A stretch of 64,000 nucleotides of DNA from a virus (IMGVR_UViG_3300037067_027643:32001-96000), one strand, 5' to 3'. Shown: positions 8,928 through 62,975, numbered from the stretch's first letter. Notes: generated by a model from the sequence alone, not told the origin. A program made the numbers and translations.

Positions 8928-10649
8928 TTATCCGCATTTGGACATTCCGCACGCTGGGCATTTCTGGCAACTCTCACTAAATACCATTAATTCTCCACAA
9001 TCTGGACATTTATTTTTACTCTTTATACCATCCTTTATAAATTTCTTAATGGTGCGCTCAACACCTGTTTTCCAAGTGTTTATACCATCTTCTTCAAATT
9101 TAAGATTACCTATTAACTCATATACACAAACTAATGGCATTCCTTGTCTAAGTACACCAGATAAAAGTCTAGCATAATTATAATATTGTTTGTCAAATGT
9201 TCTATTTAATCCTTCGTGTGTACATTTAAACCCATCACTATCAACATATTGAAAATCATATCTACTTATACCATTTTCTTTATTTCTGATAATAAATCCC
9301 TTTTCTATTTTTTGAGGAATATTAAAGGATTCTGATTTTCCAGTAAACAATTCGTATGGTTTATTATTTAATAATCCTATAACACTAATCCATTTTTCAC
9401 TATTACTTGTAAATCGAATAATTTCTGCGGGTAATATTTTAGGTCTTTTTGGTGCATGTGTTTCCCAATCGTTATTGATATTAGTTGCATTTTTACTATT
9501 ATCAATTAATATACCATCTCTACTTCCTTCTCTATATATTGTAAATCCTTTACATCCTTGTTTCCATGCTTCTAAATATATTGTTGATATTTCTTGTTCT
9601 GTTACATTATTAGGTAAATTACATGTAGAACTAATACTTTGTTGAATATATTGTTGAATTATTCCTTGTATTTTACATCTATTTATCCAATTAATTTCAC
9701 TCGCTGTTGATTTATAGTAAGGTGATACAGTTATTAATTTATCAAATTCTGTTTTATCTAATTTACTTAATTCTAACGATGATTCTTGTTCTGTTATATT
9801 TTTATATATACTATACCAAATAATAAATTTAGAATGGACTACATTATATTCTTCAAAACTATCACCTTGTTTATCTGTAAATGCTACTTTACTATTTTTA
9901 TCATTTGGATTTACTTTTTTACGTCTTGTATAATATATCATGAATGTAGGTTCAATTCCGGATGTTGTCTTAGTTAATAATGAAATTGATCCTGTTGGTG
10001 CCAATGCTGTTTGTGCTACATTTCTTCTTCCGAATTTTTTATATTTATCTATATAACTTTTATTTAATTTAGGTAACATCAATTGTATAAAATCATTTTT
10101 CGATTCTATATTGTAATCAAATCCTACGAATGAGCCTCTTTCTTCTGCTAAATCTATATCACTTTCTAATGAAGCCTTAGCAAATGAATTCATTATAGTA
10201 TTTTTAATAAATTCTATTGATTCTTCTGAACTATATTGTAAATTCATAGCTGCTAAAGTATCTCCTAATCCTGTATATCCTAATCCTGTTCTTCTACTAT
10301 TTAATGTTGTTTGTTTAATTTTATTCCATAATTCAATTTCTGTTCTCTTTATTTCTATCGGTTCTGGATCAATTTCTATTTTTGATAATATATTATTTAT
10401 TTTATCTATTTCCAAATCTACCATGTCGTCCATTATTCGCTGTCCATATTTTACATGTTGTTCAAATAAATCTATATTAAATGTTGAATTTTTTGTAAAT
10501 GGATTCACTACATAACTATACAGATTAAGCGACATAAGCCTGCAAGTATCTTGTGCCATATAGATTTCTCCACAATCCACATTCAAAATTGATTTATTAA
10601 AATAATTTTCTATTTTATCTTCCGTCTTTTTTATTTTTGTTATAATCAT
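8928..10649 (-). CDS. nrdJ: class II ribonucleotide reductase, C-terminal fragment preceded by 25-aa IntC
   Basis: CGEI, CRLMSLNL, RRTGLG, APTGSIS, TTSGIEP, GCKGFTIYREGSR, C-terminal CxxC pairs. Confidence 0.9.
   Translation of the reverse strand: MIITKIKKTEDKIENYFNKSILNVDCGEIYMAQDTCRLMSLNLYSYVVNPFTKNSTFNIDLFEQHVKYGQRIMDDMVDLEIDKINNILSKIEIDPEPIEIKRTEIELWNKIKQTTLNSRRTGLGYTGLGDTLAAMNLQYSSEESIEFIKNTIMNSFAKASLESDIDLAEERGSFVGFDYNIESKNDFIQLMLPKLNKSYIDKYKKFGRRNVAQTALAPTGSISLLTKTTSGIEPTFMIYYTRRKKVNPNDKNSKVAFTDKQGDSFEEYNVVHSKFIIWYSIYKNITEQESSLELSKLDKTEFDKLITVSPYYKSTASEINWINRCKIQGIIQQYIQQSISSTCNLPNNVTEQEISTIYLEAWKQGCKGFTIYREGSRDGILIDNSKNATNINNDWETHAPKRPKILPAEIIRFTSNSEKWISVIGLLNNKPYELFTGKSESFNIPQKIEKGFIIRNKENGISRYDFQYVDSDGFKCTHEGLNRTFDKQYYNYARLLSGVLRQGMPLVCVYELIGNLKFEEDGINTWKTGVERTIKKFIKDGIKSKNKCPDCGELMVFSESCQKCPACGMSKCG
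10575..10649 (-). mobile_element. split intein C-fragment (IntC), 25 aa, ending in Asp
   Basis: MIITKIKKTEDKIENYFNKSILNVD directly precedes the CGEI extein. Confidence 0.7.
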
Positions 10650-11874
10650 TTAATTCTTTCTTAAATTGTTCAAAATTATTAAAATATTTATTTATTGTTT
10701 GTATATTCAATCCAAAATTTAATGGTATTAATTTATTTTCTTTAAGATATTTAATAACATTATTAATATTTTCTAAATCAATATTACCATTATATTTATT
10801 AATACCATTGAATATTTTTATTTTATATCCATTAATTGATATATTATTTTTTAAATTATATTCTAATGTACATTTACCTGAACAAGTCATTTTTTCGGAA
10901 CTTGTTCTTTTTTTAAAAATATTTGTACATATTGCACATTTGCATTCTATAATCGGATCATTTAAATCTTTTTCTTGTCTTATTTTTTCGTATTTTTCTT
11001 TTTGACGTTTACTTATATCAGCCGCCATTTGTGGATTATTTTTAAATGCCTCCTTTCTGGATTTACTTAGTTTTAATGTATATTCTGGGTTTTCACATCT
11101 TTCTATTGCTTTTTGCCTTATTTTTTCTATGGTAGATTCTGACATAACAGCACCAAATCTTGGATTATTTTCTCCCCTCATATCACATTCTATAAAAGCA
11201 TCTTTCTTCCATTCTTTGCATTCCAATTTTATATCTTTGTTTTGTTTTAAAATTAAATTAATATCATATATCAATTCATATTCAATTTTAATTGATTCAA
11301 AATATTTTTTAAATAATTCATATTTATCATCCAAATTTTTATTATTACTTTTAACTTCAATTACTTTACACAAAATATTATTTTTATACATAAAAAAATC
11401 TGGTTTATATGATATATCACCCAAATAAAATATTTTATCTTCCATTTCTATTCTATAATCATTATAATATTTATATAAATATTTTAAAATAATAAACTCA
11501 CATTGACTTCGACAGTAATATTTTTTATCATTAATTATAACATAACCAGAATATCCTCGACTAAAATTTTTTGTTTGATGTTTATGTTGAACAGTTCTTC
11601 TATTAGTATGCTTATAAGATGATTCTATAAAATTATTAGCAAATATTTTTTTATTTTCTTCGGCTTCTAATTGTGTACAATTTTTCCGTAAAATCCAATA
11701 TGCAATAGATACTTTACTATTTGACGAATTAATAAATTGTACAATATCTATACATAATTTTTTATTTAATTCTGACTTATCTTTAATATTAAAATAAATC
11801 AAGGTTTTTTCTAAAAATTTATCAAAACCTTGTCTAATTTTTAATTTACTTAATTTTTCTACTGTTTGTTTCAT
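10615..11874 (-). CDS. free-standing PD-(D/E)XK homing endonuclease with NUMOD3-like and Zn motifs
   Basis: YKPDFF...IEVKS, GENNPRFGAVMSESTIEKIR, CxxC...CSGKC; lies between the two nrdJ halves. Confidence 0.8.
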   Translation of the reverse strand: MKQTVEKLSKLKIRQGFDKFLEKTLIYFNIKDKSELNKKLCIDIVQFINSSNSKVSIAYWILRKNCTQLEAEENKKIFANNFIESSYKHTNRRTVQHKHQTKNFSRGYSGYVIINDKKYYCRSQCEFIILKYLYKYYNDYRIEMEDKIFYLGDISYKPDFFMYKNNILCKVIEVKSNNKNLDDKYELFKKYFESIKIEYELIYDINLILKQNKDIKLECKEWKKDAFIECDMRGENNPRFGAVMSESTIEKIRQKAIERCENPEYTLKLSKSRKEAFKNNPQMAADISKRQKEKYEKIRQEKDLNDPIIECKCAICTNIFKKRTSSEKMTCSGKCTLEYNLKNNISINGYKIKIFNGINKYNGNIDLENINNVIKYLKENKLIPLNFGLNIQTINKYFNNFEQFKKELNDYNKNKKDGR

Positions 11875-11940
11875 ATATTAATATCTCCTTACCATGTATT
11901 TAAATAAATAGTAAAAAAATATTTTTTATAAAACAACATG

Positions 11941-13371
11941 TTAAATTATTTCATCTCCTTCGACTAATTTATATGCAAATTTTTGACCTAATTTTGTATT
12001 AACAATATCAAAATATTTTAATTTTAAATTATCATTTAAAATAATATCATCTTCCACAATAATTTCTTTTCTATTTAAAATACTAAAAAAATTATAATTG
12101 GGTATAGCTGTTAAATCATATACATCCTCTACTAAATTTGTTTTAAAAATATCAATTACCTTAAGTAATTTATTATTAACACCTAATATAGAAATTTCTT
12201 TATTATTCTGTAAATCAATATCACAAATTAATATTTGATTAAAATCTTTATCATATAATTTATGTTTAGAATTTACTAAAATATATTCTCCATTATCAAA
12301 TGATATTTTATAAATTTCGTCTTTATGATTTGTTATGCCAACCCAATCTAATTCAGATGTAAATAATATACCATTTTTATCTTGTGTAATTATTTTAATA
12401 TCACTATATTTATCTTTCCACTTTTCTAAATTATTAATTTTAATCCAACCAATATTTGTTAATACTAATGTATCACCAACAACGCATGGGTTTGTGGTTA
12501 TCCCTTTGTATTGTGGATATTCTTCACTAATCCCTTTATCTAAGTTGTCAATAAATAGAATTCCTGGTTCTGCATTCTTCCAATTGTTATATATCAACTT
12601 ATTCCAAATATCTTTAGGATTGATTTTTTTCTTAAATTTTGCTTCTCCTGTTATTGGAAATTGTTGTTCAAATTCTTTATTGTTAATAATACAATCTAAA
12701 AATTCATTTGTTATTTTAATTGAAATATTTGCTCCGGTAATTTTTCCTTCTTCAAATTTAGCATTTATAAAGTCCTCTAAATCAGGGTGCTTACAATGCA
12801 AAGACAGCAACAAAGCTCCTCTTCTTCCATCTTGTGCTACTTCTCTAGTTGAATTACTATATCTTTCCATAAATGGAACTATTCCTGTAGATGTTAATGC
12901 GCTATTTTTAACAGGACTACCTTTTGGTCTAATATGAGATAAGTCATGACCAACACCACCTCTTCTTTTCATCAACTGAACCTGTTCTTCGTCTGTTTTT
13001 ATAATTCCTCCGTAGCTATCGCACTCATTCCCTACGACGAAGCAATTGCTAATCGAGGTAACTTGTAAATCGTTTCCGATTCCTGCCATTGCACTTCCAC
13101 CTGGAATAATATATTTAAAATTCTTTAACAAATCGTATATTTCTTCTTCACTTAGTGGATTTGGATACTTTTGTTCTATTTTTGATAATTCTTCGGCTAT
13201 TCTTTTATGCATGTCATCTGGACATTTTTCATAAATATTTCCTTCACTATCCTTTAATGCATACTTATTGATCCAAACATTTGTGGCTAGAGTGTCATTG
13301 TCAAAATATTTTAATGTTTCATTATAAACTTCTTCTCTATTAAATTTAATCATCATTTCTTTATTCTCCAA
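11941..13371 (-). CDS. nrdJ: class II ribonucleotide reductase, N-terminal fragment fused to IntN
   Basis: WINKYAL, SNCFV, RRGGVGHDLSHIRP, VAQDGRRGA, AEPGILF, TTNP followed by intein. Confidence 0.92.
   Translation of the reverse strand: MENKEMMIKFNREEVYNETLKYFDNDTLATNVWINKYALKDSEGNIYEKCPDDMHKRIAEELSKIEQKYPNPLSEEEIYDLLKNFKYIIPGGSAMAGIGNDLQVTSISNCFVVGNECDSYGGIIKTDEEQVQLMKRRGGVGHDLSHIRPKGSPVKNSALTSTGIVPFMERYSNSTREVAQDGRRGALLLSLHCKHPDLEDFINAKFEEGKITGANISIKITNEFLDCIINNKEFEQQFPITGEAKFKKKINPKDIWNKLIYNNWKNAEPGILFIDNLDKGISEEYPQYKGITTNPCVVGDTLVLTNIGWIKINNLEKWKDKYSDIKIITQDKNGILFTSELDWVGITNHKDEIYKISFDNGEYILVNSKHKLYDKDFNQILICDIDLQNNKEISILGVNNKLLKVIDIFKTNLVEDVYDLTAIPNYNFFSILNRKEIIVEDDIILNDNLKLKYFDIVNTKLGQKFAYKLVEGDEII
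11944..12486 (-). mobile_element. split intein N-fragment (IntN), 181 aa
   Basis: CVVGDTLVLT (block A), VNSKHKLY (block B), VYDLTAIPNYNFF (block F); inserted at NP|C. Confidence 0.85.
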
Positions 13372-51604: not shown

Positions 51605-52901
51605 TCATAATTCACAAAATTTATTAATATTTCTCAAACTTGTTAATTCTGTAGTTAATTGTTTCTTTGTATTTGGTGTTTCTAATACCGCTTTATTTGT
51701 ATCTACATTAAATGAAACTAATTTCCAAACATATCCACGATTCTTAGCCCATGATACATGGTATTTTCGTCCAATTATATATTCTTTTGGTATATCTTTT
51801 AATTCTGTCATATTTTATCCAAAATTAATCATACCTTCTGGATATTTCTTCCAAAATTTAACCAATTGTTTTATTGCTTCTTGTTTTAAAATATTTCTAT
51901 CAGTTTTATCAAAACAAGTAGAAGTATAATAAATATTATCATCATTATCTTCTAAATATTTTAACGTTTCTTCTAACGAAAATAAAATATCATCTGGATA
52001 ATCTCCTATACGAAATACATCATGTGGTAAATCGTTAGAAGAAATATAAAATATTTGTTTTTTACAATTATATGAAGTTACATTATAATTTGATGTATGA
52101 TACTTATTATATATAGCAATCTCACATAATCCTTTTTTAACAATTTTTAATTGTCTTTCAACAATAGCTTTTTGTTTAATTCCATAATCGATAGTCCATT
52201 CTGGATATGTTTCTAATAATTCTAAATCTATTTTATCTCTATGATTTATCATATTATCATAAAACTTAATAGATCTTTTATATGTATTAATAACATTATT
52301 TCTAACTTTATCTTTGCTTATATTATACGGTTTAAAAAACCAAGTATGACATCCCATATTATTTATTTTTAATTATTATTTAAACGGATTAAACCCACTA
52401 TATCTCAAATCATTTACATTTGCTATTCTACTATCATCTACTATAGTTTCTTCATTTGTTACTATTACAGAATCTTCTACATCACACCAATATTCTTCTG
52501 GTAAATTTTTATCAATATTAAACTTTTGATATAAAAATTCAGATATAGGTTCTTGTTTAACTCCATTTTCAAAATATACAACCTCTCTATAATCTCCAAT
52601 TTTAAAAATATTTTCTTTTAAAAATGGAGTATAAAACCTTTTTACATACTGACCTATGTACTTAATGTATTGTCTGTAATTAGTTTTGTTATTCATATTT
52701 ATTTTAATGATTAAATGACTCTTTATATGTATGACCACAATTTTTACATTTATATTCTACTCTTGTTATATATAAATTATAATTTCTTAATTTTCTACTA
52801 AACTGTTTAATTTCATTTGATAAAGAAACAGTTTCACGACTAATTTCTTTAAATTGACAAAATCCAAAGAAACATAAAATATTTTTAATTAATTGTATCA
52901 T
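51605..52901 (-). CDS. run of hypothetical genes (51605-51811, 51815-52357, 52376-52738, 52704-52901)
   Basis: Packed ORFs downstream of rtcB. Confidence 0.6.
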
Positions 52902-54283
52902 AAATTTAATATTTTTTTATTATTTTTACGTTCTTCTCTTTCCTGTTTCATTTTCTTATTAGCTTTTCTATCTTTCCATGATTCTCCTTCACTACTGTCT
53001 TTGATATTCAATATAGGTTTTACTCTATCAATTATTTCAATAGTAGGTTCCAATAATAGTTCAATTAATTCACTGTCTTTATAAGATTGTGGGCTTTCAT
53101 CTAATGTACCTTTACAAACAGAAGTTGAATAAATCCCTTCCATAGACTTTTTAAAATCATCTAAATTTACTGTTTCTTTTGCTTTAGTTCTACTCATTAT
53201 TCTACCGGCTCCATGAGCACAACTGTAATTCCAATCTGGATTAGATTTACCGACAGCGATAACCATTCCATCTCTCATATTAAATGGTATAATCATCTTT
53301 TTATCTTTGTAAGATGCTATTGCTCCTTTACGAATTATAAAATCATTAAAATCGACATAATTGTGAATTGACTCTATTACTTCATCAAATTTAGTAATAT
53401 TTAAAACTTCTTGAATAATATCTAACATTGTTTTTCTATTCCAAACTGCATACTGTTGAGCAAATATCATATCAAATAAATAGTTTATTAAATATTCATC
53501 TTGTAAGTATTCTCGATCTATTCCTATACCAAACTTTTTTTTAAGTGAATCAATTTTATTTGGTATCTCTTTCTTATCAACTGTATTTAATACAATTTCA
53601 TTTAATCGTTTACTGTAATTATTAGAAGATCCATTCATTTGTTTTTTAGCTTGATTTATCCAATATTCTGCTACCTTTAAACCAAAGTTTCTACTTCCAG
53701 AATGAATGGTTACATAATAATCTGTAAGTGCTTGATTTACACCTATTTCAAGAAAGTGATTGCCTCCACCCATTGACCCAATACTATTAAAAAACTTCTT
53801 GATATTCATTTTAATATCTTTTAATTTTTTAATTAACCATTGTTCACTATATAATGGAGCTACATAATTTGTATTATATTTAACATTAAATGCTTTTACA
53901 AACTTATCTGCTATTATCTGTACATCATTGTATGGAATATCAGTAAAAACAGGACTTTTATGTTCATTAAATCCCATTGGAATTCTATGTCTGATTTCCT
54001 TATTTATTTTTTCTAAATCTAAATTAGAAGCATTTGGAAACTTTCCACTAATGAGACCACAGCCAATATCAACGCCTATATAGCTGGGTGTTAAGTAGTT
54101 ACCTAATTCCATTGTAAATCCAATACAAATTCCTTTACCAAAATGAGCATCCGGTTGAATTCTTACTTTAAGTCCTTTTGATATTGGAGAATTGATAATC
54201 GAATATATTTGAGAAATTACTTCCTCCTCTACATTATCAATGAATATTTTTGCTGTTGTATATTTCCCTGTTAATTCTATCAT
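52898..54283 (-). CDS. rtcB: RNA ligase RtcB
   Basis: PDAHFG, GVDIGCG, GGGNHF, HSGSR, HNY, RKGA, HGAGR, DESPQSYK. Confidence 0.95.
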   Translation of the reverse strand: MIELTGKYTTAKIFIDNVEEEVISQIYSIINSPISKGLKVRIQPDAHFGKGICIGFTMELGNYLTPSYIGVDIGCGLISGKFPNASNLDLEKINKEIRHRIPMGFNEHKSPVFTDIPYNDVQIIADKFVKAFNVKYNTNYVAPLYSEQWLIKKLKDIKMNIKKFFNSIGSMGGGNHFLEIGVNQALTDYYVTIHSGSRNFGLKVAEYWINQAKKQMNGSSNNYSKRLNEIVLNTVDKKEIPNKIDSLKKKFGIGIDREYLQDEYLINYLFDMIFAQQYAVWNRKTMLDIIQEVLNITKFDEVIESIHNYVDFNDFIIRKGAIASYKDKKMIIPFNMRDGMVIAVGKSNPDWNYSCAHGAGRIMSRTKAKETVNLDDFKKSMEGIYSTSVCKGTLDESPQSYKDSELIELLLEPTIEIIDRVKPILNIKDSSEGESWKDRKANKKMKQEREERKNNKKILNL

Positions 54284-55282: not shown

Positions 55283-56195
55283 TTTATTTTGAGAAAAGAC
55301 TGAAAATATTTTAAAACAGCTACGTCTTTCATCTTAGCTTCTACTATTATAACCACATCTTTACCTAATGTATCCACTGGTTCATAAATATAATCAGCAT
55401 GTGATTGTTTACTCAATTTTTATCTACAACATTTTCAAATAACAATTTACTACTAGAATGATGAACGGTTGGAATTATATGTTTTGGCCATGTATTATAT
55501 GATAGCAAAAATGCTTCTTTGTATGTTAACTTACCCGAATTAATCTTATAATGTAATGAGTCAAATACAATTGGAATTCCTATTTGTTCATGTATAGCAA
55601 ATAAATCTTGAACTGTAAACATATTACATTTATCATCATTTTCTACAGTCAATCTTTTTTGAACATTCTTATCTAATCTATTGAAGTTTTCACAAAATCT
55701 ATCAATAGCACTGGTTTTATCTCCATAGCTTGCGCCTACATGAACATTTATCTTGGTATTATTATCAGCATTAAAACTCATTAAATCAAATATTCGGCTT
55801 GTAGCATTTAGTTCTAATACAGTTTTATCAACTACATCCTTTTTATTACTAGCTAAAACATTGAATGGTCCGGGATGAAAGGAAAGTCTAACATTGTTAT
55901 TTCTACAATAATCTCCAATAGTTTTTAATTCTTGAACGATTGTTTTATAATCTGGTAAATCTTCAAATCGATAAAATGTTTTTAAGGGAAAGAAGTCATC
56001 TGGAAGTCGATAAGCAAATATACCATTATCAACGTTCCATTTTAAAATAATTTTTAAATCTTGTATGTTTTTTATGATTAAATCATTAACAGCTTGTACT
56101 CCTTTAATACCAAAACTTTTTCTTGTAATGGTATGGCCAGTCTTACAGTCTGGAATTGATAAATTTATACAAGCATATCCGAAGATTTGTTTCAT
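55270..56195 (-). CDS. uvsE: UV damage endonuclease, frameshifted near 55415
   Basis: GYACIN, RLSFHPG, NVHVG, LTVENDD, PIVFDSLH, HHSSS; the conserved tail SHADYI...IVEAKMKD is in the -1 frame past the TGA at 55413. Confidence 0.85.
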
Positions 56196-56199
56196 ATTA

Positions 56200-57113
56200 T
56201 TACTTTACTGTTTTAATCCAATATCTATATTTTAGATTTTTAGCATGTTTTAAACCTTCTTTGCTTTTTTCTAATTGTTCATTCCAATAACTAATTAAAT
56301 TTTCTTTAGCATATTCAAATGTATCAAATGATGTTGTACTAGAAACTATATCTAAATCATAAAGAAACTCAGAGAAATCTTCTAATGTACCTATAAATCC
56401 TTCATCATAACTAATATAAAAAAGGTTTATTTCTTCTTCTGTAAATGTATCTAAAGACGATGACATATTATTCGATTATTAATTTTCCAAATACTTTTTT
56501 AAGTTTGGGTTTATCATTTACATAATCCATTAATTGAATATGATTTGGAAGCATTTCAATATTGTTTAAGTATTTTTGTGCAATATTATTAGCTCTTATT
56601 ACTAACAAATGTGCATACAAAAGACATATTTTTTGTTCTTCCATATTCCAACCAGTATAAGGTTCATCAAACTCCTCCAAAATTTCTAATGTTCCCAATT
56701 CTCCAACAAACATTTTAATAAACTTAGCAACCCTTGATGAATATTTATTTTCTTCCTCTAACTGAACTAATAAAGAATTAAATTTTTCCAATAAAACATC
56801 AAAGTTTCCTACTGGTTTAATATCTGATAATTCATATATGGTTGTTTTCATTATTTAATAATTTATTTACTACATTAATAGCATCCTTGAGTAAAATAGC
56901 TGTTTCTGTATTTCTATAAGCTATCTCAATAAAATATTTATTACAATCCTTGAATATTTCTTCTATGTTAGCAGCTGTTTTGTTAGTATATTCTTTAATC
57001 CATTCATCTTCATCTAACTCTCCTTGATTATAACTTGGATACATACCTTTAATTTCGCCAGCTTTAAAAGCATTTCTTAAATCTTCTTCTGTATATGTTT
57101 TCATAATTGACAT
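56200..57113 (-). CDS. three hypothetical genes (56200-56466, 56468-56851, 56832-57113)
   Basis: Packed ORFs behind the promoter at 57138-57169. Confidence 0.6.
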
Positions 57114-57137
57114 TTATTTTATTAATTTTTAAAAGTA

Positions 57138-57169
57138 CAAAGATAATAAAAAATTTTGATATAAACAAA
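57138..57169 (-). promoter_or_regulatory. Bacteroidota primary-sigma-type promoter
   Basis: TTTG-N20-TATCTTTG. Confidence 0.7.
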
Positions 57170-57199
57170 TTTATTTTTTAAGGAGGAAAAATAAAGTAG

Positions 57200-57271
57200 A
57201 GCCCATTTCTGGAATTGAACCAGAATATATAGTTTTGCGGACTACTGACTAAACCATTCATCCAAATGGGC
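57200..57271 (-). tRNA. tRNA-Cys(GCA)
   Basis: Cloverleaf; anticodon arm GTAGT-CCGCAAA-ACTAT. Confidence 0.85.
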
Positions 57272-57278
57272 ATTTTTG

Positions 57279-57365
57279 CATACGTTGTAGGATTTGGACC
57301 CACGAGGAAGTATAAACTTCAATAGTTTTGGAGACTATCGCCTTCGACCACTTGGCTAAACGTAT
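57279..57365 (-). tRNA. tRNA with CCA (Trp) anticodon and long variable arm
   Basis: ATAGT-CTCCAAA-ACTAT; variable arm GAAGT-TTAT-ACTTC; G73. Confidence 0.8.
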
Positions 57366-57378
57366 GTATATCAATTAG

Positions 57379-57459
57379 TTGCGAGAGAGGGACTTGAACC
57401 CTCGAGGCTTACGCAATGGGATATGAGCCCATCCTGATACCAACTTCAGTCATCTCGCA
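57379..57459 (-). tRNA. tRNA-Met(CAT), initiator-like, with extended variable region
   Basis: ATGGG-CTCATAT-CCCAT (three G-C pairs); 12-nt variable region. Confidence 0.8.
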
Positions 57460-57465
57460 ATATAT

Positions 57466-58563
57466 TTATATTTCTAAAATTACATCTTTATGATCTAAAA
57501 TTAATTTGAAATTATATCCATGTTCTTTATAAGCTTTTAATTTATCTTTCATGTTTTGTTCATTGTATGTATAATTACTTTTTATTTCTACAATTAAATT
57601 TGTGTCTGGTAAATAAAAATCGGGTATTGCTGTTCTTTGTTTTAATAATTGTGTATCCCAATATGAAATTCTTAATTTTTCAACTTCATAATTAATTTTA
57701 TCTTTATCTAATTGGTTAGCATATTCTAATTCATACCCACTTCTATAAAATATTTGTTTATTATTCCAAGTAGTATGATATCCATGTTTATAATGTGAAT
57801 TTTTATTAATTACATTTAATTTTCCATGAATTATAGCATTTCCAGTACTTTCAGAAAAACATCGTAATTTAATATTAAAATAATTTATCACTTTATTAAA
57901 ATTTGATAAAGAATATCCATATTTCTCTGACATATCTGAAGTACTTAATTTTTCATCATAATAGTCTTCATATAGCATAATTCGAATTCGTTCAAATTCT
58001 TCGTAATAATTTTTGGTTCCTAATACATTTTTATCAAATCCAAAGTATTTTATTAAATTTGGAATTATTTGATATCGTTTACAAATTTCTGGATGTTTAC
58101 ATTGACCTTTTATTGATCCACACATTTTACAATCAACATTATTAAATCTTTTTCTTTGATATTCTAATTTACAAATATTACATAAACATTTTTTAATACT
58201 ATTTCTTTTATTAACAATAATATCGCTTCCGCATTTAACACATTTAGCTTCTTTTGTTTCTAAATTATTATCGTTTTTTGTACTATATTTATGAGAACAA
58301 TACGAAGAACAAAATCTACCACTACCATACGAACCATCTATTTCTATACCACATTCTTCACAATATAATTGCTTTATTTCAATTATTTTATTAGCATTAA
58401 TTATTGCCTTTTTCTTCTCTTTTGTTATTCTACATAATTCTATTTGTTCTTTTGTTATTATTCTACTTCTACTACATGATTTTGAACAAAATTTTCCAGT
58501 TCCATAAGAACCATTATGTTCATGTCCACATTTTTCACAAAATTTTTTATTTTCCATATCCAA
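57466..58563 (-). CDS. homing endonuclease (Zn-finger repeats, TnsA-like PD-(D/E)XK) inside tRNA array 1
   Basis: Two CExCG..GSYGxGxFCS units; YRSGYE; IPDFYLP...VEIKS. Confidence 0.8.
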   Translation of the reverse strand: MDMENKKFCEKCGHEHNGSYGTGKFCSKSCSRSRIITKEQIELCRITKEKKKAIINANKIIEIKQLYCEECGIEIDGSYGSGRFCSSYCSHKYSTKNDNNLETKEAKCVKCGSDIIVNKRNSIKKCLCNICKLEYQRKRFNNVDCKMCGSIKGQCKHPEICKRYQIIPNLIKYFGFDKNVLGTKNYYEEFERIRIMLYEDYYDEKLSTSDMSEKYGYSLSNFNKVINYFNIKLRCFSESTGNAIIHGKLNVINKNSHYKHGYHTTWNNKQIFYRSGYELEYANQLDKDKINYEVEKLRISYWDTQLLKQRTAIPDFYLPDTNLIVEIKSNYTYNEQNMKDKLKAYKEHGYNFKLILDHKDVILEI

Positions 58564-58651
58564 ACTATTTTACATTTTATATATAAATAGTAAATAGTTT
58601 GAAAATAAATTCCGCAATATTTCAAAGAACAATTTTAATTTTATAAATTTG

Positions 58652-58724
58652 AGCCAATAGAAGGAATCCAACCCTCAACCCTTCCGGTACAAACGGATTG
58701 CTCTAGCAATTGAGCTATACTGGC
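58652..58724 (-). tRNA. tRNA-Thr(TGT)
   Basis: TCCG-TTTGTAC-CGGA; acceptor GCCAGTA/TATTGGC. Confidence 0.8.
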
Positions 58725-58741
58725 ATTACATTATTATAGGG

Positions 58742-58818
58742 CGGTCTATAAGGAATTTGAATCCTTCTGAACATTCCGAGTGACAGTCGGACAGCCACAC
58801 CTAGCAGCTCCATAGACC
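58742..58818 (-). tRNA. tRNA-Asp(GTC)
   Basis: TCCGA-CTGTCAC-TCGGA; G73. Confidence 0.85.
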
Positions 58819-58842
58819 AATTATATATTATATTAATTTTAG

Positions 58843-58915
58843 TGAGACTATGAGGAATCAAACCCCAATCCTATGAACCGTACTCATAAATTCTATTCAA
58901 TTGAACTATAGTCCC
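58843..58915 (-). tRNA. tRNA-Arg(ACG)
   Basis: TATGA-GTACGGT-TCATA. Confidence 0.8.
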
Positions 58916-58930
58916 AAATTAATAATAAAG

Positions 58931-59003
58931 TATTCGGTACGGGAGTTGAACCCGTATGTCAAGATTGAAGGTCTTGAATCCTTACCAATTAGATGAACCG
59001 AAC
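58931..59003 (-). tRNA. tRNA-Glu(TTC)
   Basis: CAAGA-CCTTCAA-TCTTG. Confidence 0.85.
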
Positions 59004-59019
59004 AAATGTCTTGTATATG

Positions 59020-59092
59020 TAGCCAAAGATGGAATTGAACCATCGCCCTGTATCTTATAAGGATACTGCTCTTACCACTGAGCTACTTGGCT
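59020..59092 (-). tRNA. tRNA-Ile(TAT)
   Basis: GTATC-CTTATAA-GATAC; A73. Confidence 0.85.
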
Positions 59093-59103
59093 ATATTTAA
59101 TAG

Positions 59104-59178
59104 TGGAATCTATGGTATTCGAAACCATCTGCTGTTCTCAGTGCAAATGAGATGACCACCCTAGCAGTCCCAGACCCC
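59104..59178 (-). tRNA. tRNA-Ala(TGC)
   Basis: TCTCA-TTTGCAC-TGAGA; G3:U70. Confidence 0.88.
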
Positions 59179-59189
59179 GTTTATATTAG

Positions 59190-59264
59190 TTGGTGTAATT
59201 GGATTTGAACCAATGACCTCAATCTTATCAGGATTGTCGTCTGACCGGGCTGACATATACACCA
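59190..59264 (-). tRNA. tRNA-Ile(GAT)
   Basis: CAATC-CTGATAA-GATTG. Confidence 0.88.
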
Positions 59265-59274
59265 ATATAATTAG

Positions 59275-59346
59275 TGGAACTAGATGGATTTGGACCACCG
59301 ACCACTTCCTCTTCAGGGAAGCACTCTACCACTGAGTTATAGTTCC
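59275..59346 (-). tRNA. tRNA-Phe(GAA)
   Basis: CTTCC-CTGAAGA-GGAAG. Confidence 0.88.
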
Positions 59347-59356
59347 ATTGTATTTG

Positions 59357-59430
59357 TAGGAATACCAGGATTCAAACCTGGGATCTAGTGGATGTAAACC
59401 AATCGCTTTAATCAACTAAGCTATATTCCT
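59357..59430 (-). tRNA. tRNA-Val(TAC)
   Basis: TGG-TTTACAT-CCA; acceptor AGGAATA/TATTCCT. Confidence 0.82.
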
Positions 59431-59440
59431 ATGTTATCAG

Positions 59441-59513
59441 CGACTCTAATACGGAATGATCGTATAACCTACCGGTTAACAGCCGGTTGCTCTACCAATT
59501 GAGCTATAGAGTC
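59441..59513 (-). tRNA. tRNA-Asn(GTT)
   Basis: ACCGG-CTGTTAA-CCGGT; atypical T-loop ATCATTC. Confidence 0.82.
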
Positions 59514-59522
59514 ATATATTAG

Positions 59523-59594
59523 TGCCTTCGAATCGACTTGAACGATTACTCTTACATCTTAAAAGGATGAGATTTTACATTAAACTACGAAGGC
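59523..59594 (-). tRNA. tRNA-Lys(TTT)
   Basis: CATC-CTTTTAA-GATG. Confidence 0.82.
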
Positions 59595-59599
59595 AATTG

Positions 59600-59682
59600 T
59601 GGAGGAAGAGTGATTTGAACACCCATAGCTTTTTGCGACGGATTTACAGTCCGCTGATTTCTACCCACTTACCATTTCCTCC
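59600..59682 (-). tRNA. tRNA-Tyr(GTA)
   Basis: GCGGA-CTGTAAA-TCCGT; long variable arm. Confidence 0.88.
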
Positions 59683-59702
59683 ATTATATATTATTATCTT
59701 TG

Positions 59703-59774
59703 AGCGAGATAACGGGTTCAAACCGTTGACAAAGCATTGGAAGTGCCTCATGTTATCAACTACACCAATCTCGC
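59703..59774 (-). tRNA. tRNA-Gly(TCC)
   Basis: AGGCA-CTTCCAA-TGCTT; U73. Confidence 0.88.
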
Positions 59775-59796
59775 TTAATTCATTTATATCAATACG

Positions 59797-59806
59797 TCAA
59801 AGAACA
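59797..59806 (-). promoter_or_regulatory. boxA-like antitermination element (also 58622-58630, 61217-61225, 61607-61615)
   Basis: GTTCTTTGA occurs four times in spacers of the tRNA arrays. Confidence 0.65.
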
Positions 59807-59823
59807 TTGTTTTTAATTCAAAT

Positions 59824-59863
59824 AAAAAACCCAACTAGTTTTTTAATTTTCTGGTTGGGTTTT
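59824..59863 (-). terminator. attenuator terminator upstream of tRNA array 1
   Basis: AAAACCCAACCAG/CTAGTTGGGTTTT stem ending in T6, between the leader ORF and the first tRNA. Confidence 0.8.
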
Positions 59864-59896
59864 ATATATTTTATTATAATATATTTTTTAATAAAC

Positions 59897-60052
59897 TCAC
59901 CAACCAACATCTTTTGCTTCTTCTCCAAAACGATAATCATTATTTGTTTTTGCTATAAAAATACAACCGTCCACAAACATCATATTTTTATCTATAATGC
60001 TATTGTTCCAACATGTATTATTAATGACTGTATTATTTCGCTTTGTTTTCAT
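59897..60052 (-). CDS. candidate attenuation leader peptide 1 (51 aa)
   Basis: Not in ORF track. MKTKRNNTVINNTCWNNSIIDKNMMFVDGCIFIAKTNNDYRFGEEAKDVGW with A-rich initiation region; its 3' end is complementary to the terminator 5' arm. Confidence 0.75.
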   Translation of the reverse strand: MKTKRNNTVINNTCWNNSIIDKNMMFVDGCIFIAKTNNDYRFGEEAKDVGW

Positions 60053-60084
60053 TTTATTTTTTGTTATTACTTCTTTTTATTTTA

Positions 60085-60213
60085 TATAAATAGTTAAAAA
60101 TAAATTAAAAATTTTCAATTTCAAATTATTTTACAAAATTAAGTAAATTTTTTCACTCTACCAAATTTATTTTTAATTATTTTAATATACAACATTATTT
60201 TCAAATAAACAAA
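60085..60213 (-). promoter_or_regulatory. three stacked promoter motifs upstream of leader 1
   Basis: TTTG-N20-TATATTAA (60182-60213), TTTG-N20-TAATTTTG (60134-60165), ACTATTTATA (about 60085-60094). Confidence 0.65.
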
Positions 60214-60232
60214 TAAAATTTAATTGTAATAT

Positions 60233-60997
60233 TTATTTATCCCAAATATTATTAAATTTTGAATAATCAATATCTTCGTATGGATATTTATCATTAAAAT
60301 ATTCCAATTTTACTATATCAAATGTATTTAATAATTTTTTATCATCTATCAATAAAATTTTTATATTTGTTTCATGAATACATTTCCACATTTTACATTT
60401 ATCATTTTCACTCATCCAACCTTTTACTTCAATATATACATCAAAATCAGGCAAATAAAAATCTGGCGTATAAGAACGAGATTTATCAAATTTGACTCTT
60501 ATTCTATCCCAATTTATTTTTAATTCATTTAATCGTTCCGCTACTGTTTTTTCCCATTTTCCTTGAACATTAATTATTTTATATCCATTATATATCGAAT
60601 ACCACAATATATTATTTCCTTTATTTTCTTCTAAAAATTTTATCCTATGTTCTGACATTTTCTTTCTTGATTCAATTGTATGGTTTTTATTATTCCAATA
60701 TGGTATTATTTCGCCATTTTCAAATTTCTGTTTAAGATTAATACTAGTATTTTTAAGTCTATCATCATTTTCTTTTGTTAATCCCTTATTCCATTTCATA
60801 TTTTCTTTTGATTCTTCGGGAAAGTCTAAAAATTTTTCTTTACCCGATTTTATTTTTCCAGAACTATATGATTTTTTTAAACCATTACTATTTTTTAACC
60901 TATTTGCTGGACATTGATTAAAATGCTCTGAACAACAATATTTACCATTTTTTAATTGATATTTTCCTTCTTGACCGCAATTATAAGCACACAACAT
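60233..60997 (-). CDS. homing endonuclease (Zn motif, NUMOD3-like, PD-(D/E)XK) between the tRNA arrays
   Basis: CAYNCG..CCS..CP; KNHTIESRKKMS; YTPDFYLP...IEVKGW. Confidence 0.8.
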   Translation of the reverse strand: MLCAYNCGQEGKYQLKNGKYCCSEHFNQCPANRLKNSNGLKKSYSSGKIKSGKEKFLDFPEESKENMKWNKGLTKENDDRLKNTSINLKQKFENGEIIPYWNNKNHTIESRKKMSEHRIKFLEENKGNNILWYSIYNGYKIINVQGKWEKTVAERLNELKINWDRIRVKFDKSRSYTPDFYLPDFDVYIEVKGWMSENDKCKMWKCIHETNIKILLIDDKKLLNTFDIVKLEYFNDKYPYEDIDYSKFNNIWDK

Positions 60998-61046
60998 AAT
61001 TTTTACTATTTGTTTACTTATAAATAGTAAAAATTATTATTTTTCG

Positions 61047-61120
61047 TATCCACAGAAGGAGTCGAACCCTCAACCATTGGGGTAGAATCCCAATATTCTA
61101 TCCAGTTGAACTATGTGGAC
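61047..61120 (-). tRNA. tRNA-Arg(TCT)
   Basis: TTGGG-ATTCTAC-CCCAA. Confidence 0.85.
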
Positions 61121-61127
61121 ATTTTGG

Positions 61128-61201
61128 GGTGGCACTCGAGGATTGAACTCAAATCAACAGATTCACAGTCTGCCCGCTTAACCATTTAGCGTAATGTCAC
61201 C
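61128..61201 (-). tRNA. tRNA-His(GTG)
   Basis: GCAGA-CTGTGAA-TCTGT; G-1:C73. Confidence 0.88.
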
Positions 61202-61237
61202 ATTTAAAAATTATATTCAAAGAACTATTGTTATCTG

Positions 61238-61314
61238 TCTAGGCGGTGCGATTCGAACGCACGTTATGTCGTGTTTCCAAAACACGCTAGTTTAGCCATC
61301 TGCTGTACGCCTAG
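61238..61314 (-). tRNA. tRNA-Pro(TGG)
   Basis: CGTGT-TTTGGAA-ACACG; C1:G72, A73. Confidence 0.85.
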
Positions 61315-61320
61315 TTATTG

Positions 61321-61406
61321 CGGAAAAATAAGGATTCGAACCTTAGGGACTGTTACATCCACGTCATTAGCAGTGACGCACAATAGACCAACTCTGTCAT
61401 TTTTCC
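61321..61406 (-). tRNA. tRNA-Ser(GCT)
   Basis: CGTCA-CTGCTAA-TGACG; long variable arm; G73. Confidence 0.9.
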
Positions 61407-61413
61407 ATTATAG

Positions 61414-61487
61414 CAGCCAAAACTGGGCTCGAACCAATACTCCGACAGTCAAAGTGTCGTATGCTTTACCGATTACATTATTTGGCT
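61414..61487 (-). tRNA. tRNA-Gln(TTG)
   Basis: CGACA-CTTTGAC-TGTCG. Confidence 0.88.
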
Positions 61488-61494
61488 ATAAAAG

Positions 61495-61581
61495 CGGAAG
61501 GTTAGGGACTCAAACCCCAGATACGGTATTAGCGTATTACTAATTTTCAAGATTAGCTCTTCGTTCAGCCAGACACCTTCC
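61495..61581 (-). tRNA. tRNA-Ser(TGA)
   Basis: CTAAT-CTTGAAA-ATTAG; long variable arm; G73. Confidence 0.82.
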
Positions 61582-61626
61582 ATTTATTATTTACAATACA
61601 TTATTTTCAAAGAACTTATATTCAAT

Positions 61627-61662
61627 AAAAAACCCTATTTACTTTTGATTTAAACAGGGGTT
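61627..61662 (-). terminator. attenuator terminator upstream of tRNA array 2
   Basis: CCCTGTTTA/TAAATAGGG stem followed by T6. Confidence 0.78.
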
Positions 61663-61688
61663 GTAATGTTTTTATATATTATACTATA

Positions 61689-61808
61689 TCATCTATAAAT
61701 ATCACAATACACCTGTTCCCATTGACTATGTCTTGGTTGTAAGCACGATGGTCTACTATTAATTGAGGGTTGATGTTGATGATTATATGTAACGATATTT
61801 ATTTTCAT
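61689..61808 (-). CDS. candidate attenuation leader peptide 2 (39 aa)
   Basis: Not in ORF track. MKINIVTYNHQHQPSINSRPSCLQPRHSQWEQVYCDIYR. Confidence 0.78.
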   Translation of the reverse strand: MKINIVTYNHQHQPSINSRPSCLQPRHSQWEQVYCDIYR

Positions 61809-61835
61809 TATTTTTGTTTTATTCTTTTAATTTTA

Positions 61836-61848
61836 TATAAATAGTAAA
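61836..61848 (-). promoter_or_regulatory. TTTTACTATTTATA putative late promoter (copies or near-copies at about 11905, 31337, 36301, 58583, 60085, 61019 on minus; 38203, 41059, 49782 on plus)
   Basis: Recurs in intergenic DNA, oriented with the downstream gene on either strand. Confidence 0.65.
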
Positions 61849-61870
61849 AAAATTTTAAAAAGTTATTTTG

Positions 61871-62975
61871 TTAATATTTAAGATATTCTCCATCATTTTC
61901 TTTTCCTGTTCCTAAGTATTCTTTAAATCCAGTAATAATTGACATTGCTCGATCCATACAAGGTTTTATTTTTTCATCTTCTCCCCATTTTTCAATTTTA
62001 TATTGTAATGGTTTATAATTTCTTAAAGAAATATCTGATTTTGTAATTAATCCATAGTTATTAGATTCTGTTTTAACTATTGTAAAAGAAACAAATGGAA
62101 TTGATTCTACTCTACCAATTATATGTTCATTCTTATTATTTAAAATAGATAAATCTTGTTCTTTATCTTCAATATTAACTAAACCAGTATATATTTCTCC
62201 TTCTACAATACTATATCTATCTTCTAAAGATTTATATTCGGTTTTATATTTTGTCCAGTTAATTGTTATCATAGTTTCGATTTATTCTACAAAATTAAGT
62301 AAATTATTTCAATCTACCAAATTTATTTTTGATTATTTTAAATGACAAGTACAAGTTCCTATTTCTATTCCATTATCATCATACAATATACCTCTATCAT
62401 GACATTGAAAACAATTTTCTTCTTTTTTGACTTCTTGTTCTATCTCATCAATTACACTATATATCTCACCGACCCATGTTCTTACTGGGTCGTTTAAATA
62501 ACCACCACTTACATCATCGTCAATAAGGCATTCATATTCTATATTCTTTGCTACATCAGCTAATCTTTTTATTTGTTCTTTGGTTATATTCATATTATTT
62601 ATCTTAAAAAATACCACACCACCGTTTGTTGTTTGTTAAACTAAAAATATAAAAATCAAATTATTATGAAAAAAATGATGTTTGGTGGTGTGATATATGT
62701 TTTTATTTTATTTATTTATAAATTTCGTTTAATTCAAATTTATCTCCATGACAACAACTAAATCCATCGTCTAAATCATCCATTTCACAAAATTTTATAT
62801 TATCTTTTAATCTCCATTTACAATAATCACATGTAAATTCGTGACTTGATAAGTTTATACAATATTTAGATTTTATTGGATTACAAAAACCATCTTTACT
62901 AATACAATTATCACATGATTTTTCTATTGACATATATTTTATTTTTAATATACAAAATCTTTTATTGATTTCCAA
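61871..62975 (-). CDS. three hypothetical genes (61871-62272, 62333-62617, 62712-62975 Cys-rich)
   Basis: ORF track; true starts of the last two are probably internal Mets. Confidence 0.6.
62290..62321 (-). promoter_or_regulatory. Bacteroidota primary-sigma-type promoter
   Basis: TTTG-N20-TAATTTTG. Confidence 0.75.

Follow-up and report, generated by a model that had tools for sequence, protein, structure and literature searches.

Predicted leader-peptide attenuators with matching amino-acid content precede the tRNA arrays of a giant phage

The tRNA genes of a giant phage appear to be placed under the control of the codons that they serve. Specifically, each of its two tRNA arrays is preceded by a short open reading frame (ORF) rich in the amino acids of that array and by an intrinsic terminator whose 5′ arm can pair instead with the end of the ORF. 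Judging from these features, we consider it very likely that each array is gated by a ribosome-mediated (leader-peptide) attenuator of the trp/ilv type, such that the phage probably makes a block of tRNAs only when the matching codons are read slowly. The observations concern a window of 64,000 nucleotides, which corresponds to bases 32001–96000 of a virus record that is 285,744 bp long and has a G+C content of about 26%. Positions are counted from the first letter of the window unless they are given as genome positions.

The window carries replication and repair genes of the giant-phage kind, including those for a DnaB-like helicase, a UvsX-like recombinase, a split NrdA, SbcCD-like proteins, an RtcB ligase and UvdE. 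The closest bacterial relatives of the phage UvdE are from the Cryomorphaceae and Flavobacteriales, and the best GenBank match to its RtcB lies in LR756501.1, followed by matches in Bacteroides and Phocaeicola phages; for these reasons the host is likely a member of the Bacteroidota. The location of RtcB near the arrays is compatible with a setting of tRNA damage and proves nothing. All 22 tRNA genes called by ARAGORN in the whole genome fall within the window, on the minus strand, in two arrays, and none of them is for leucine (Table 1). The earlier note on this DNA had described 16 tRNAs downstream of the first leader; the gene calls return them in the amino-acid order given there, and the leader ORF, the terminator and the boxA-like element likewise lie where that note had put them, all on the minus strand. 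The endonuclease-like ORF inside array 1 has a ACTATTTATATA motif in front of it. An Rfam scan of positions 56500–62700 at E values up to 1 returned tRNA matches only: no T-box, no Trp, His, Leu, Thr or Phe leader and no other cis-regulator.

The two units share a layout that consists of promoter motifs, a leader ORF, an antiterminator arm at the 3′ end of the leader, an intrinsic terminator, the sequence GTTCTTTGA and the tRNA genes. They are paralogous, with promoter, terminator-tail (T-run) and boxA-region blocks in common.

Table 1. Features of the two units and their surroundings, with positions counted from the first letter of the window
Feature	Position	Strand	Basis
Leader ORF 1, 51 codons plus TGA	59897..60052	minus	ORF scan, genome-wide window test
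tRNA array 1, whole (16 genes)	59774-57199	minus	ARAGORN
tRNA array 1, first 13 genes: Gly, Tyr, Lys, Asn, Val, Phe, Ile-GAT, Ala, Ile-TAT, Glu, Arg-ACG, Asp, Thr	58651..59774	minus	ARAGORN; Rfam tRNA model for most
tRNA array 1, last three genes: Met, Trp, Cys	57199..57459	minus	ARAGORN, Rfam
365-aa endonuclease-like ORF inside array 1, between Thr and Met	57466..58563	minus	Pfam DUF7487, Phage_endo_I; PHROG endonuclease families
254-aa endonuclease-like ORF between arrays 1 and 2	60233..60997	minus	PHROG endonuclease/resolvase families
Leader ORF 2, 39 codons plus TGA	61689..61808	minus	ORF scan, genome-wide window test
tRNA array 2, six genes: Ser-TGA, Gln, Ser-GCT, Pro, His, Arg-TCT	61046..61581	minus	ARAGORN
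Host-type promoter motif, unit 1: AAAATAAATTTGGTA (conserved, includes TTTG) followed by TAATTTTG at 60141-60134	60134..60193	minus	repeated motif
Second promoter-like motif ACTATTTATATAAAAT, unit 1, 27 nt before the leader start codon	60079..60094	minus	identical 16-mer before both leaders
Promoter-like motif ACTATTTATATAAAAT, unit 2	61830..61845	minus	identical 16-mer before both leaders
Predicted antiterminator 5′ arm, unit 1, over the last three leader codons and the stop codon	59891..59908	minus	constrained folds
Predicted intrinsic terminator, unit 1: 5′ arm 59865-59851, loop, 3′ arm and T-run 59838-59820	59820..59865	minus	folding
Predicted antiterminator 5′ arm, unit 2, within the last ten codons of leader 2	61701..61719	minus	constrained folds
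Predicted intrinsic terminator, unit 2	61624..61668	minus	folding
boxA-like element TGTTCTTTGACGTATTG, unit 1 (core GTTCTTTGA at 59805-59797)	59790..59806	minus	motif search
boxA-like element, unit 2 (AGTTCTTTGAAAAT...)	61594..61616	minus	motif search
Internal boxA-like copy after tRNA-Thr, array 1	58615..58631	minus	motif search
Internal boxA-like copy between tRNA-Pro and tRNA-His, array 2	61226-61211	minus	motif search

Leader 1 reads almost as an inventory of the array behind it. As the earlier note had claimed and reading of the ORF confirms, it codes for all 15 amino acids of array 1, 50 of its 51 codons belong to this set (the sole outside codon is AGC, Ser), and codons for Leu, Pro, Gln and His are absent. 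That note had named a comparison with random short ORFs, and the match proves to be far beyond chance: among all 79,967 stop-free 51-codon windows in the six frames of the 285,744-bp genome, a count of outside codons no higher than one is confined to nine overlapping windows, all of them at the leader-1 locus, and a typical window has about 12. With the long ORFs of the phage as the reference for codon usage, the enrichment of leader 1 for the array-1 set has a binomial P of 7e-6.

Leader 2 is loaded in a similar manner, with three His, five Gln, three Pro, four Ser and three Arg codons, the last all AGA. No other of the 98,268 stop-free 39-codon windows of the genome has every one of the five array-2 classes represented three or more times (binomial P of enrichment 2e-5). 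These codons make up 46% of the leader; many array-1 codons are present too, and there is one Leu codon, though the phage has no tRNA-Leu.

In the earlier note the match had been carried down to individual codons, a claim that stands in part. The codons cited are present in leader 1, in that its Ile codons include both ATA and ATT and its Arg codons are CGA and CGT, ahead of the tRNA Arg-ACG; leader 2 has its AGA codons ahead of Arg-TCT, and this split of Arg between CGN and AGA is unusual only to a modest degree (joint value about 0.025). The choice among synonymous codons did not bear out the claim: with the peptide held fixed, both leaders fit the anticodons of their arrays no better than background usage does (P = 0.10 and 0.20), and codon-level matching was dropped. 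Extended wobble is needed for four codons of leader 1 (GTC, GTT and GGT twice) and for one of leader 2 (CCC). The matching of leader to array is one of amino acids or codon boxes, not of synonymous codons.

It is worth considering whether such compositions could reflect the function of the peptides themselves, as regulators or toxins, rather than the sensing of codons. Some leader peptides do act in trans, for example peTrpL of Sinorhizobium. We give this explanation hardly any credence. The leader-1 peptide matched itself alone in a search of 5.8 billion proteins; with no homologue among them, it is not conserved as a protein. Furthermore, the leaders of different arrays are alike in position and architecture, not in sequence, and their composition follows the array.

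The RNA between each leader and its array is predicted to adopt either of two exclusive folds. The terminator of unit 1 is present in the minimum-free-energy fold, a minimum that depends on the segment folded, and terminator and antiterminator of this unit are close in energy. Folding of the nascent RNA with the terminator 3′ arm left out gave, in both units, pairing of the last leader codons with the terminator 5′ arm; when a ribosome was then placed on the stop codon in constrained folds, this antiterminator pairing became impossible and the terminator formed. The complementarity of the last leader-1 codons to the terminator 5′ arm, a point already made in the earlier note, holds up well: the duplex of the two arms has a predicted energy of −12.0 kcal/mol, and an energy at least as low occurs in 0.8% of random same-length genome windows (P = 0.008). 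The corresponding duplex of unit 2 (−10.5 kcal/mol) is reached by 2.2% of such windows. A small hairpin at about 59935–59908 precedes the antiterminator arm of unit 1 and does not compete with it, and no separate hairpin of the trp type, whether for pausing or as an anti-antiterminator (1:2), was identified. The Glu codons of leader 1 are near the antiterminator arm, and a ribosome stalled there would partly cover it.

Upstream of the leaders are motifs of two kinds that may serve as promoters. The host-type motif of unit 1 has about 50 similar stretches in the genome, and 14 aligned copies, mostly just upstream of ORF starts, yield the consensus AAAATAAATTTGGTA, TGAAA, TTAATTTTGTA. It resembles the Bacteroidota sigma-A promoter, with TTTG at −33 and TAnnTTTG at −7, and the ATG of leader 1 at 60052 lies about 80 nt past it. 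The second motif, the 16-mer ACTATTTATATAAAAT, is 22–27 nt ahead of the start codon in both units and has 33 copies in the genome with at most two mismatches, many of them 10–45 nt upstream of ORF starts; likewise, the ACTATTTATATAAA motif recurs in front of many phage ORFs. A Shine-Dalgarno-like core is found in 18% of the long ORFs of the phage, the upstream regions being A-rich. Both leaders have the A-rich upstream context of most phage genes, and leader 1 is without a Shine-Dalgarno site. Because the host is likely a member of the Bacteroidota and A-rich starts of this kind are the norm in the phage, the missing site does not speak against the leader being translated.

The boxA-like element that had been proposed to follow the terminator of unit 1 was found there, and its core, GTTCTTTGA, occurs five times in the genome, with four of the five copies in the tRNA region on the transcribed (sense) strand. 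The fifth (genome position 226918) lies in an unrelated region and was taken as a chance occurrence. The exact GTTCTTTGA 9-mer is also present after tRNA-Ala in the 16S–23S spacer of a Flavobacteriales genome, where the bases that follow resemble those of unit 1 (CATATTG...ATGAAT), and the 16S leader of the same genome holds four one-mismatch copies, compared with 0.26 expected. In Escherichia coli the boxA consensus is TGCTCTTTAACAA. A text search with the 9-mer returned unrelated primer matches only. The element is best read as a putative rrn-type boxA. Placed just past the terminator, it would leave the attenuator effective and would protect only those polymerases that had already gone past.

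Relatives of the phage were sought through RtcB, which led to 12 viral loci at 56–64% identity, most of them in records of 100–330 kb, whose tRNA arrays sit elsewhere in the record. A script that detects units, defined as a terminator followed by a boxA or a tRNA and with a short ORF ending just upstream, recovered both units of the window and several others. Three of the relatives (L024, L025 and L026) have a leader rich in Asn, Ile, Tyr, Cys and Glu before genes for Glu, Asn, Asn, Cys, Ile, Ile and Tyr; two more (L027 and L018) have a leader rich in Lys, His, Ser, Phe and Trp before Lys, Phe, Trp, Ser, His and Lys; and in L028 four tRNA-Gln genes stand behind a leader that contains a run of five Gln codons. 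In the public 735-kb record LR756501.1, where 66 tRNA matches fall into several arrays, the units comprise a Leu-rich leader before five tRNA-Leu genes, a leader rich in Gly, Thr, Ala, Val, Pro and Arg before tRNAs for Arg, Thr, Val, Ala, Gly and Pro, a Ser/Lys/His/Phe/Trp leader and an Asn/Asp/Tyr/Cys/Ile leader, each before tRNAs of its own set, and a Gln/Met-rich ORF before Met, Gln and Gln. In front of the arrays of this record that start with tRNA-Gln, with three Met or with three Glu genes (L048), protein ORFs lie immediately upstream and a leader is not evident.

Other routes to relatives gave less. GenBank phages showed no Megablast match to positions 57000–62000, and the neighbouring 133-aa protein as a query found no related loci. 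A UvdE search returned three viral loci, none with a usable array (one tRNA in L009, none in L010, and in L011 an array cut by the contig end). Relatives closer than those in the viral collection were not found in an RtcB search of metagenome contigs, nor were further homologues of the Lys/Phe/Trp/Ser/His unit in a DNA search of three related records. Contigs from a second metagenome study, of a landfill, are identical over both leaders and so offer no variation to test.

Across the phage and its relatives, the content of a leader tracks the content of its array; the earlier note had proposed testing for this against shuffled controls. Eight units were compared, the array being taken as the same-strand downstream tRNAs up to the next unit or a gap of more than 2 kb. 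The true pairing of leaders with arrays is the single best of the 40,320 permutations; six of the eight leaders rank their own array first and the other two rank it second. Enrichment for the own array has a binomial P between 5e-7 and 1e-3 for seven leaders and of 0.085 for one.

The pairing between leader and terminator appears to be maintained as well. Where L027 and L018 differ, GTTTGGA in the leader arm is replaced by GTTCGGA, TCCAAAC in the terminator 5′ arm by TCCGAAC and GTTTGGA in the terminator 3′ arm by GTTCGGA; a second change in the leader, from A to G, is matched by a T to C change in the terminator 5′ arm. The antiterminator is present in the folds of both units. In the three homologous Asn/Ile-rich leaders, the sole indel within the ORF is of 3 nt, and the flanks carry indels of 1 and 2 nt. 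The parts and their order, the match in composition, the alternative pairings, their recurrence and their covariation in relatives can all be read from the sequences themselves.

These comparisons bear on a simpler account, in which the short ORFs are chance or unrelated features, the hairpins are the terminators of upstream genes and the arrays are expressed constitutively through read-through or from promoters of their own. Short ORFs are common in AT-rich genomes, and each of the two terminators also follows a protein gene (the ORFs of 254 aa and 133 aa). We nevertheless regard this account as highly improbable, given that both leaders are genome-wide extremes for their own array, that the true pairing of eight units is one in 40,320, and that the complementarity of the arms is above chance and covaries. 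In addition, between the terminator and the first tRNA neither of the recurrent promoter-type motifs, nor any other promoter-like motif, was seen in either unit.

The attenuator reading of leader 1 put forward in the earlier note is thus supported in silico by the genome-wide extreme, the second unit, the exclusive folds, the permutation result, the compensatory changes and the indel that keeps the frame. The mechanism that we envisage is as follows; here we infer that the leader is translated, that termination depends on where the ribosome stands and that Nus factors are recruited, and we infer the trigger as well. Transcription would start at either of the two motifs, the host Bacteroidota-type one or the phage ACTATTTATATAAA, and the short leader ORF would be translated while being transcribed. 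If decoding is fast, the ribosome at the stop codon would cover the 3′ segment of the leader, the terminator hairpin would form and the polymerase would stop before the tRNAs. With a ribosome held up at any earlier codon, or with no translation, the segment would remain free, the antiterminator would form and the polymerase would read through. Past the terminator, the polymerase would meet the rrn-type boxA and probably take on Nus factors for its passage along the untranslated array. Because leader 1 consists almost only of array-1 amino acids and leader 2 is loaded with the five array-2 classes, each unit would act as an OR gate that responds to how fast the codons served by its own tRNAs are decoded. 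As the phage tRNAs accumulate, decoding would become faster, which would close a negative feedback loop. Candidate triggers are a demand of AT-rich phage codons that outruns the host tRNAs, a loss of host tRNAs in infection, and an anticodon-nuclease defence.

It is also possible, if unlikely in our view, that the parts are regulatory and the read-out is a different one: translation of the leader could control the access of Rho or the processing and stability of the precursor RNA, or the leader RNA could bind tRNA in the manner of a T-box. boxA elements act mainly against Rho, and here they follow each terminator and recur within the arrays; likewise, the small difference in energy between terminator and antiterminator and the lack of a recognised pause hairpin would sit well with such a read-out. 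Set against this, every unit has a canonical hairpin with a T-run exactly between its leader and its array, and the competing arm overlaps the stop codon in units of unrelated sequence. The Rfam scan revealed neither a T-box nor another known cis-regulator, and the amino-acid sets are in frame with an ORF that runs from ATG to stop and in which the indel keeps the frame.

It is informative to compare the predicted attenuators with well-known ones. The ilvGMEDA (Ile/Leu/Val) and thr (Thr/Ile) leaders of E. coli and Salmonella, as well as trpL, hisL, leuL and pheL, have a short translated ORF with cognate codons, as is predicted for the phage leaders, and in both cases, by prediction for the phage, an intrinsic terminator competes with an antiterminator that has its 5′ arm at the leader stop codon or just beyond it. 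The phage units also share with ilvGMEDA and thr the use of one leader for several amino acids. They differ in what they would control, which is tRNA genes (16 and 6) in place of biosynthetic enzymes, and in the reach of the leaders, which cover up to 15 amino acids with mostly one to a few codons for each instead of runs. Unlike those leaders, they would have two states, would be ON by default and have no recognised 1:2 hairpin; they match no leader family in Rfam.

Closer in purpose are the pheM leader of pheST and the T-boxes of synthetase genes, in which, as proposed for the phage units, attenuation adjusts the supply of the decoding machinery to the availability of charged tRNA. The targets in those systems are synthetase genes, whereas in the phage they would be the tRNA genes themselves; moreover, T-boxes bind uncharged tRNA directly and need no translation, and none was detected at the phage arrays. 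The ArgRS-like gene of the phage (genome position 233675) has no leader or terminator in front of it. As for the boxA, the phage GTTCTTTGA resembles the elements of rrn boxA/Nus antitermination in lying on the sense strand ahead of structural RNA genes, with similar flanks. Unlike those, it follows what is predicted to be a regulated terminator and recurs inside the tRNA arrays of a phage.

To our knowledge, all leader-peptide attenuators described so far control genes for amino-acid biosynthesis or for synthetases, and we know of no report of demand-sensing control for phage tRNA clusters. Phage tRNA genes are usually seen as a fixed supplement to codon usage, or as decoys or replacements against tRNA-cleaving defences. 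In the full-text literature covered by our search, coverage being incomplete, tRNA genes under the control of a leader peptide were described neither for phages nor for bacteria, and the words attenuator, leader and terminator are absent from the paper that published LR756501.1; the claim of the earlier note that attenuation of phage tRNA arrays is undescribed agrees with both. The clusters of T4, T5 and giant phages (Al-Shayeb et al. 2020) resemble the present arrays in their interspersed ORFs of the homing-endonuclease kind and in having RtcB nearby.

Taken beyond this one genome, we think it likely that giant phages of the Bacteroidota carry a general, modular sensor of translation speed, in which the leader lists the tRNAs of its block, up to 15 amino acids, and in which exactly the tRNAs of slowly read codons would be made and, by feedback, limited. 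The slow reading may arise from a mismatch in codon usage, from decay of host tRNAs or from an anticodon-nuclease defence. If this is true, these phages gauge how quickly each codon is decoded and supply tRNAs as they are needed, with feedback built in. The targets of leader-peptide attenuation would then widen from amino-acid and synthetase genes to include tRNAs, and the number of amino acids sensed would rise from between one and three to fifteen; it would be the first such attenuation shown to control tRNA genes. The units are short and self-contained, recur in public genomes that include LR756501.1, and make sharp differential predictions. Furthermore, the leaders may provide a route, from sequence only, to predict which tRNAs are transcribed together in uncultured phages.

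The phage carries 22 tRNAs covering 19 amino acids (whole genome; window 57199-61581), and no tRNA-Leu was found in its whole genome; leader 1, the short ORF upstream of the 16-gene tRNA array 1, has no Leu codon, compared with 8% of the phage's codons overall. Three of the tRNA genes are unusually long, and that for Trp appears to have a long extra arm, like a class II tRNA. In one related viral locus, a tRNA-like gene of about 150 nt lies directly 3′ of the unit's boxA (L026:3470-3620, +), with matching acceptor ends, a T-arm and a long insertion inside; ARAGORN made no tRNA call for it. In a 735-kb relative, two tRNAs with anticodon CTA, labelled Pyl by ARAGORN, lie side by side (LR756501.1:690585-690737, +), and these would be of the amber-suppressor type. 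Virtually identical sequence, including both leaders, is present in groundwater and landfill metagenomes (runs aligned to window 57000-62400); the former is probably the source of this DNA and the latter belongs to a separate study.

It is informative to consider the signals that could govern transcription of these arrays. A conserved block (AAAATAAATTTGGTA, TGAAA, TTAATTTTGTA) lies 5′ of many ORFs and agrees with the Bacteroidota promoter type, TTTG / TAnnTTTG; it is probably the phage's promoter class for the host polymerase. A second motif, ACTATTTATATAAA(T/A)A, has 33 sites in the genome, lies 10-45 nt 5′ of many ORF starts, and contains TATAAATA, the T4 late-promoter sequence; it may constitute a second, phage-specific class. 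The phage boxA 9-mer occurs exactly in the 16S-23S spacer of a Flavobacteriales rRNA operon (genome G006), and the 16S leader of that operon has four close variants of it. The phage element seems either to have been copied from the rrn antitermination site of the host lineage or to have converged on it.

Features discussed, with positions in the window unless a locus or genome is named
Feature	Position	Strand	Remarks
Endonuclease-like ORF within array 1	57466-58563	-	Phage_endo_I / DUF7487 / PHROG endonuclease matches to ORF pair
Endonuclease-like ORF (254 aa) between arrays	60233-60997	-	As above
boxA copies, Flavobacteriales G006	L045:250-275; L044:320-545		
Conserved promoter block	60134-60193; 62290-62340; at least 12 other places in whole genome (G000)		
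Motif ACTATTTATATAAA(T/A)A, examples	60079-60094; 61830-61845; 58576-58591		
tRNA-Trp	57278-57365	-	88 nt
tRNA-Met	57378-57459	-	82 nt
tRNA-Asp	58739-58819	-	81 nt
Ribonucleotide reductase large subunit, split	8928-13371	-	573 + 476 aa ORFs
RtcB RNA ligase; UvdE UV endonuclease	52898-54283; 55413-56195	-	RtcB: PHROG 1075, E 8e-116

The two endonuclease-like ORFs are paralogues of one another, each preceded by the promoter-like motif ACTATTTATA, and their placement inside and between tRNA arrays resembles that of homing endonucleases. Because no terminator was found 3′ of array 2 (six tRNA genes), this array and the 254-aa ORF may share one transcript. Elsewhere, a 419-aa ORF without a known family separates the halves of the ribonucleotide reductase large subunit, an arrangement that suggests an intervening mobile element.

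Finally, the RtcB and UvdE genes are located 3′ of array 1, at a distance of 1-4 kb. Anticodon nucleases leave RNA ends that RtcB repairs; hence, in this phage, tRNA repair adjoins tRNA supply.
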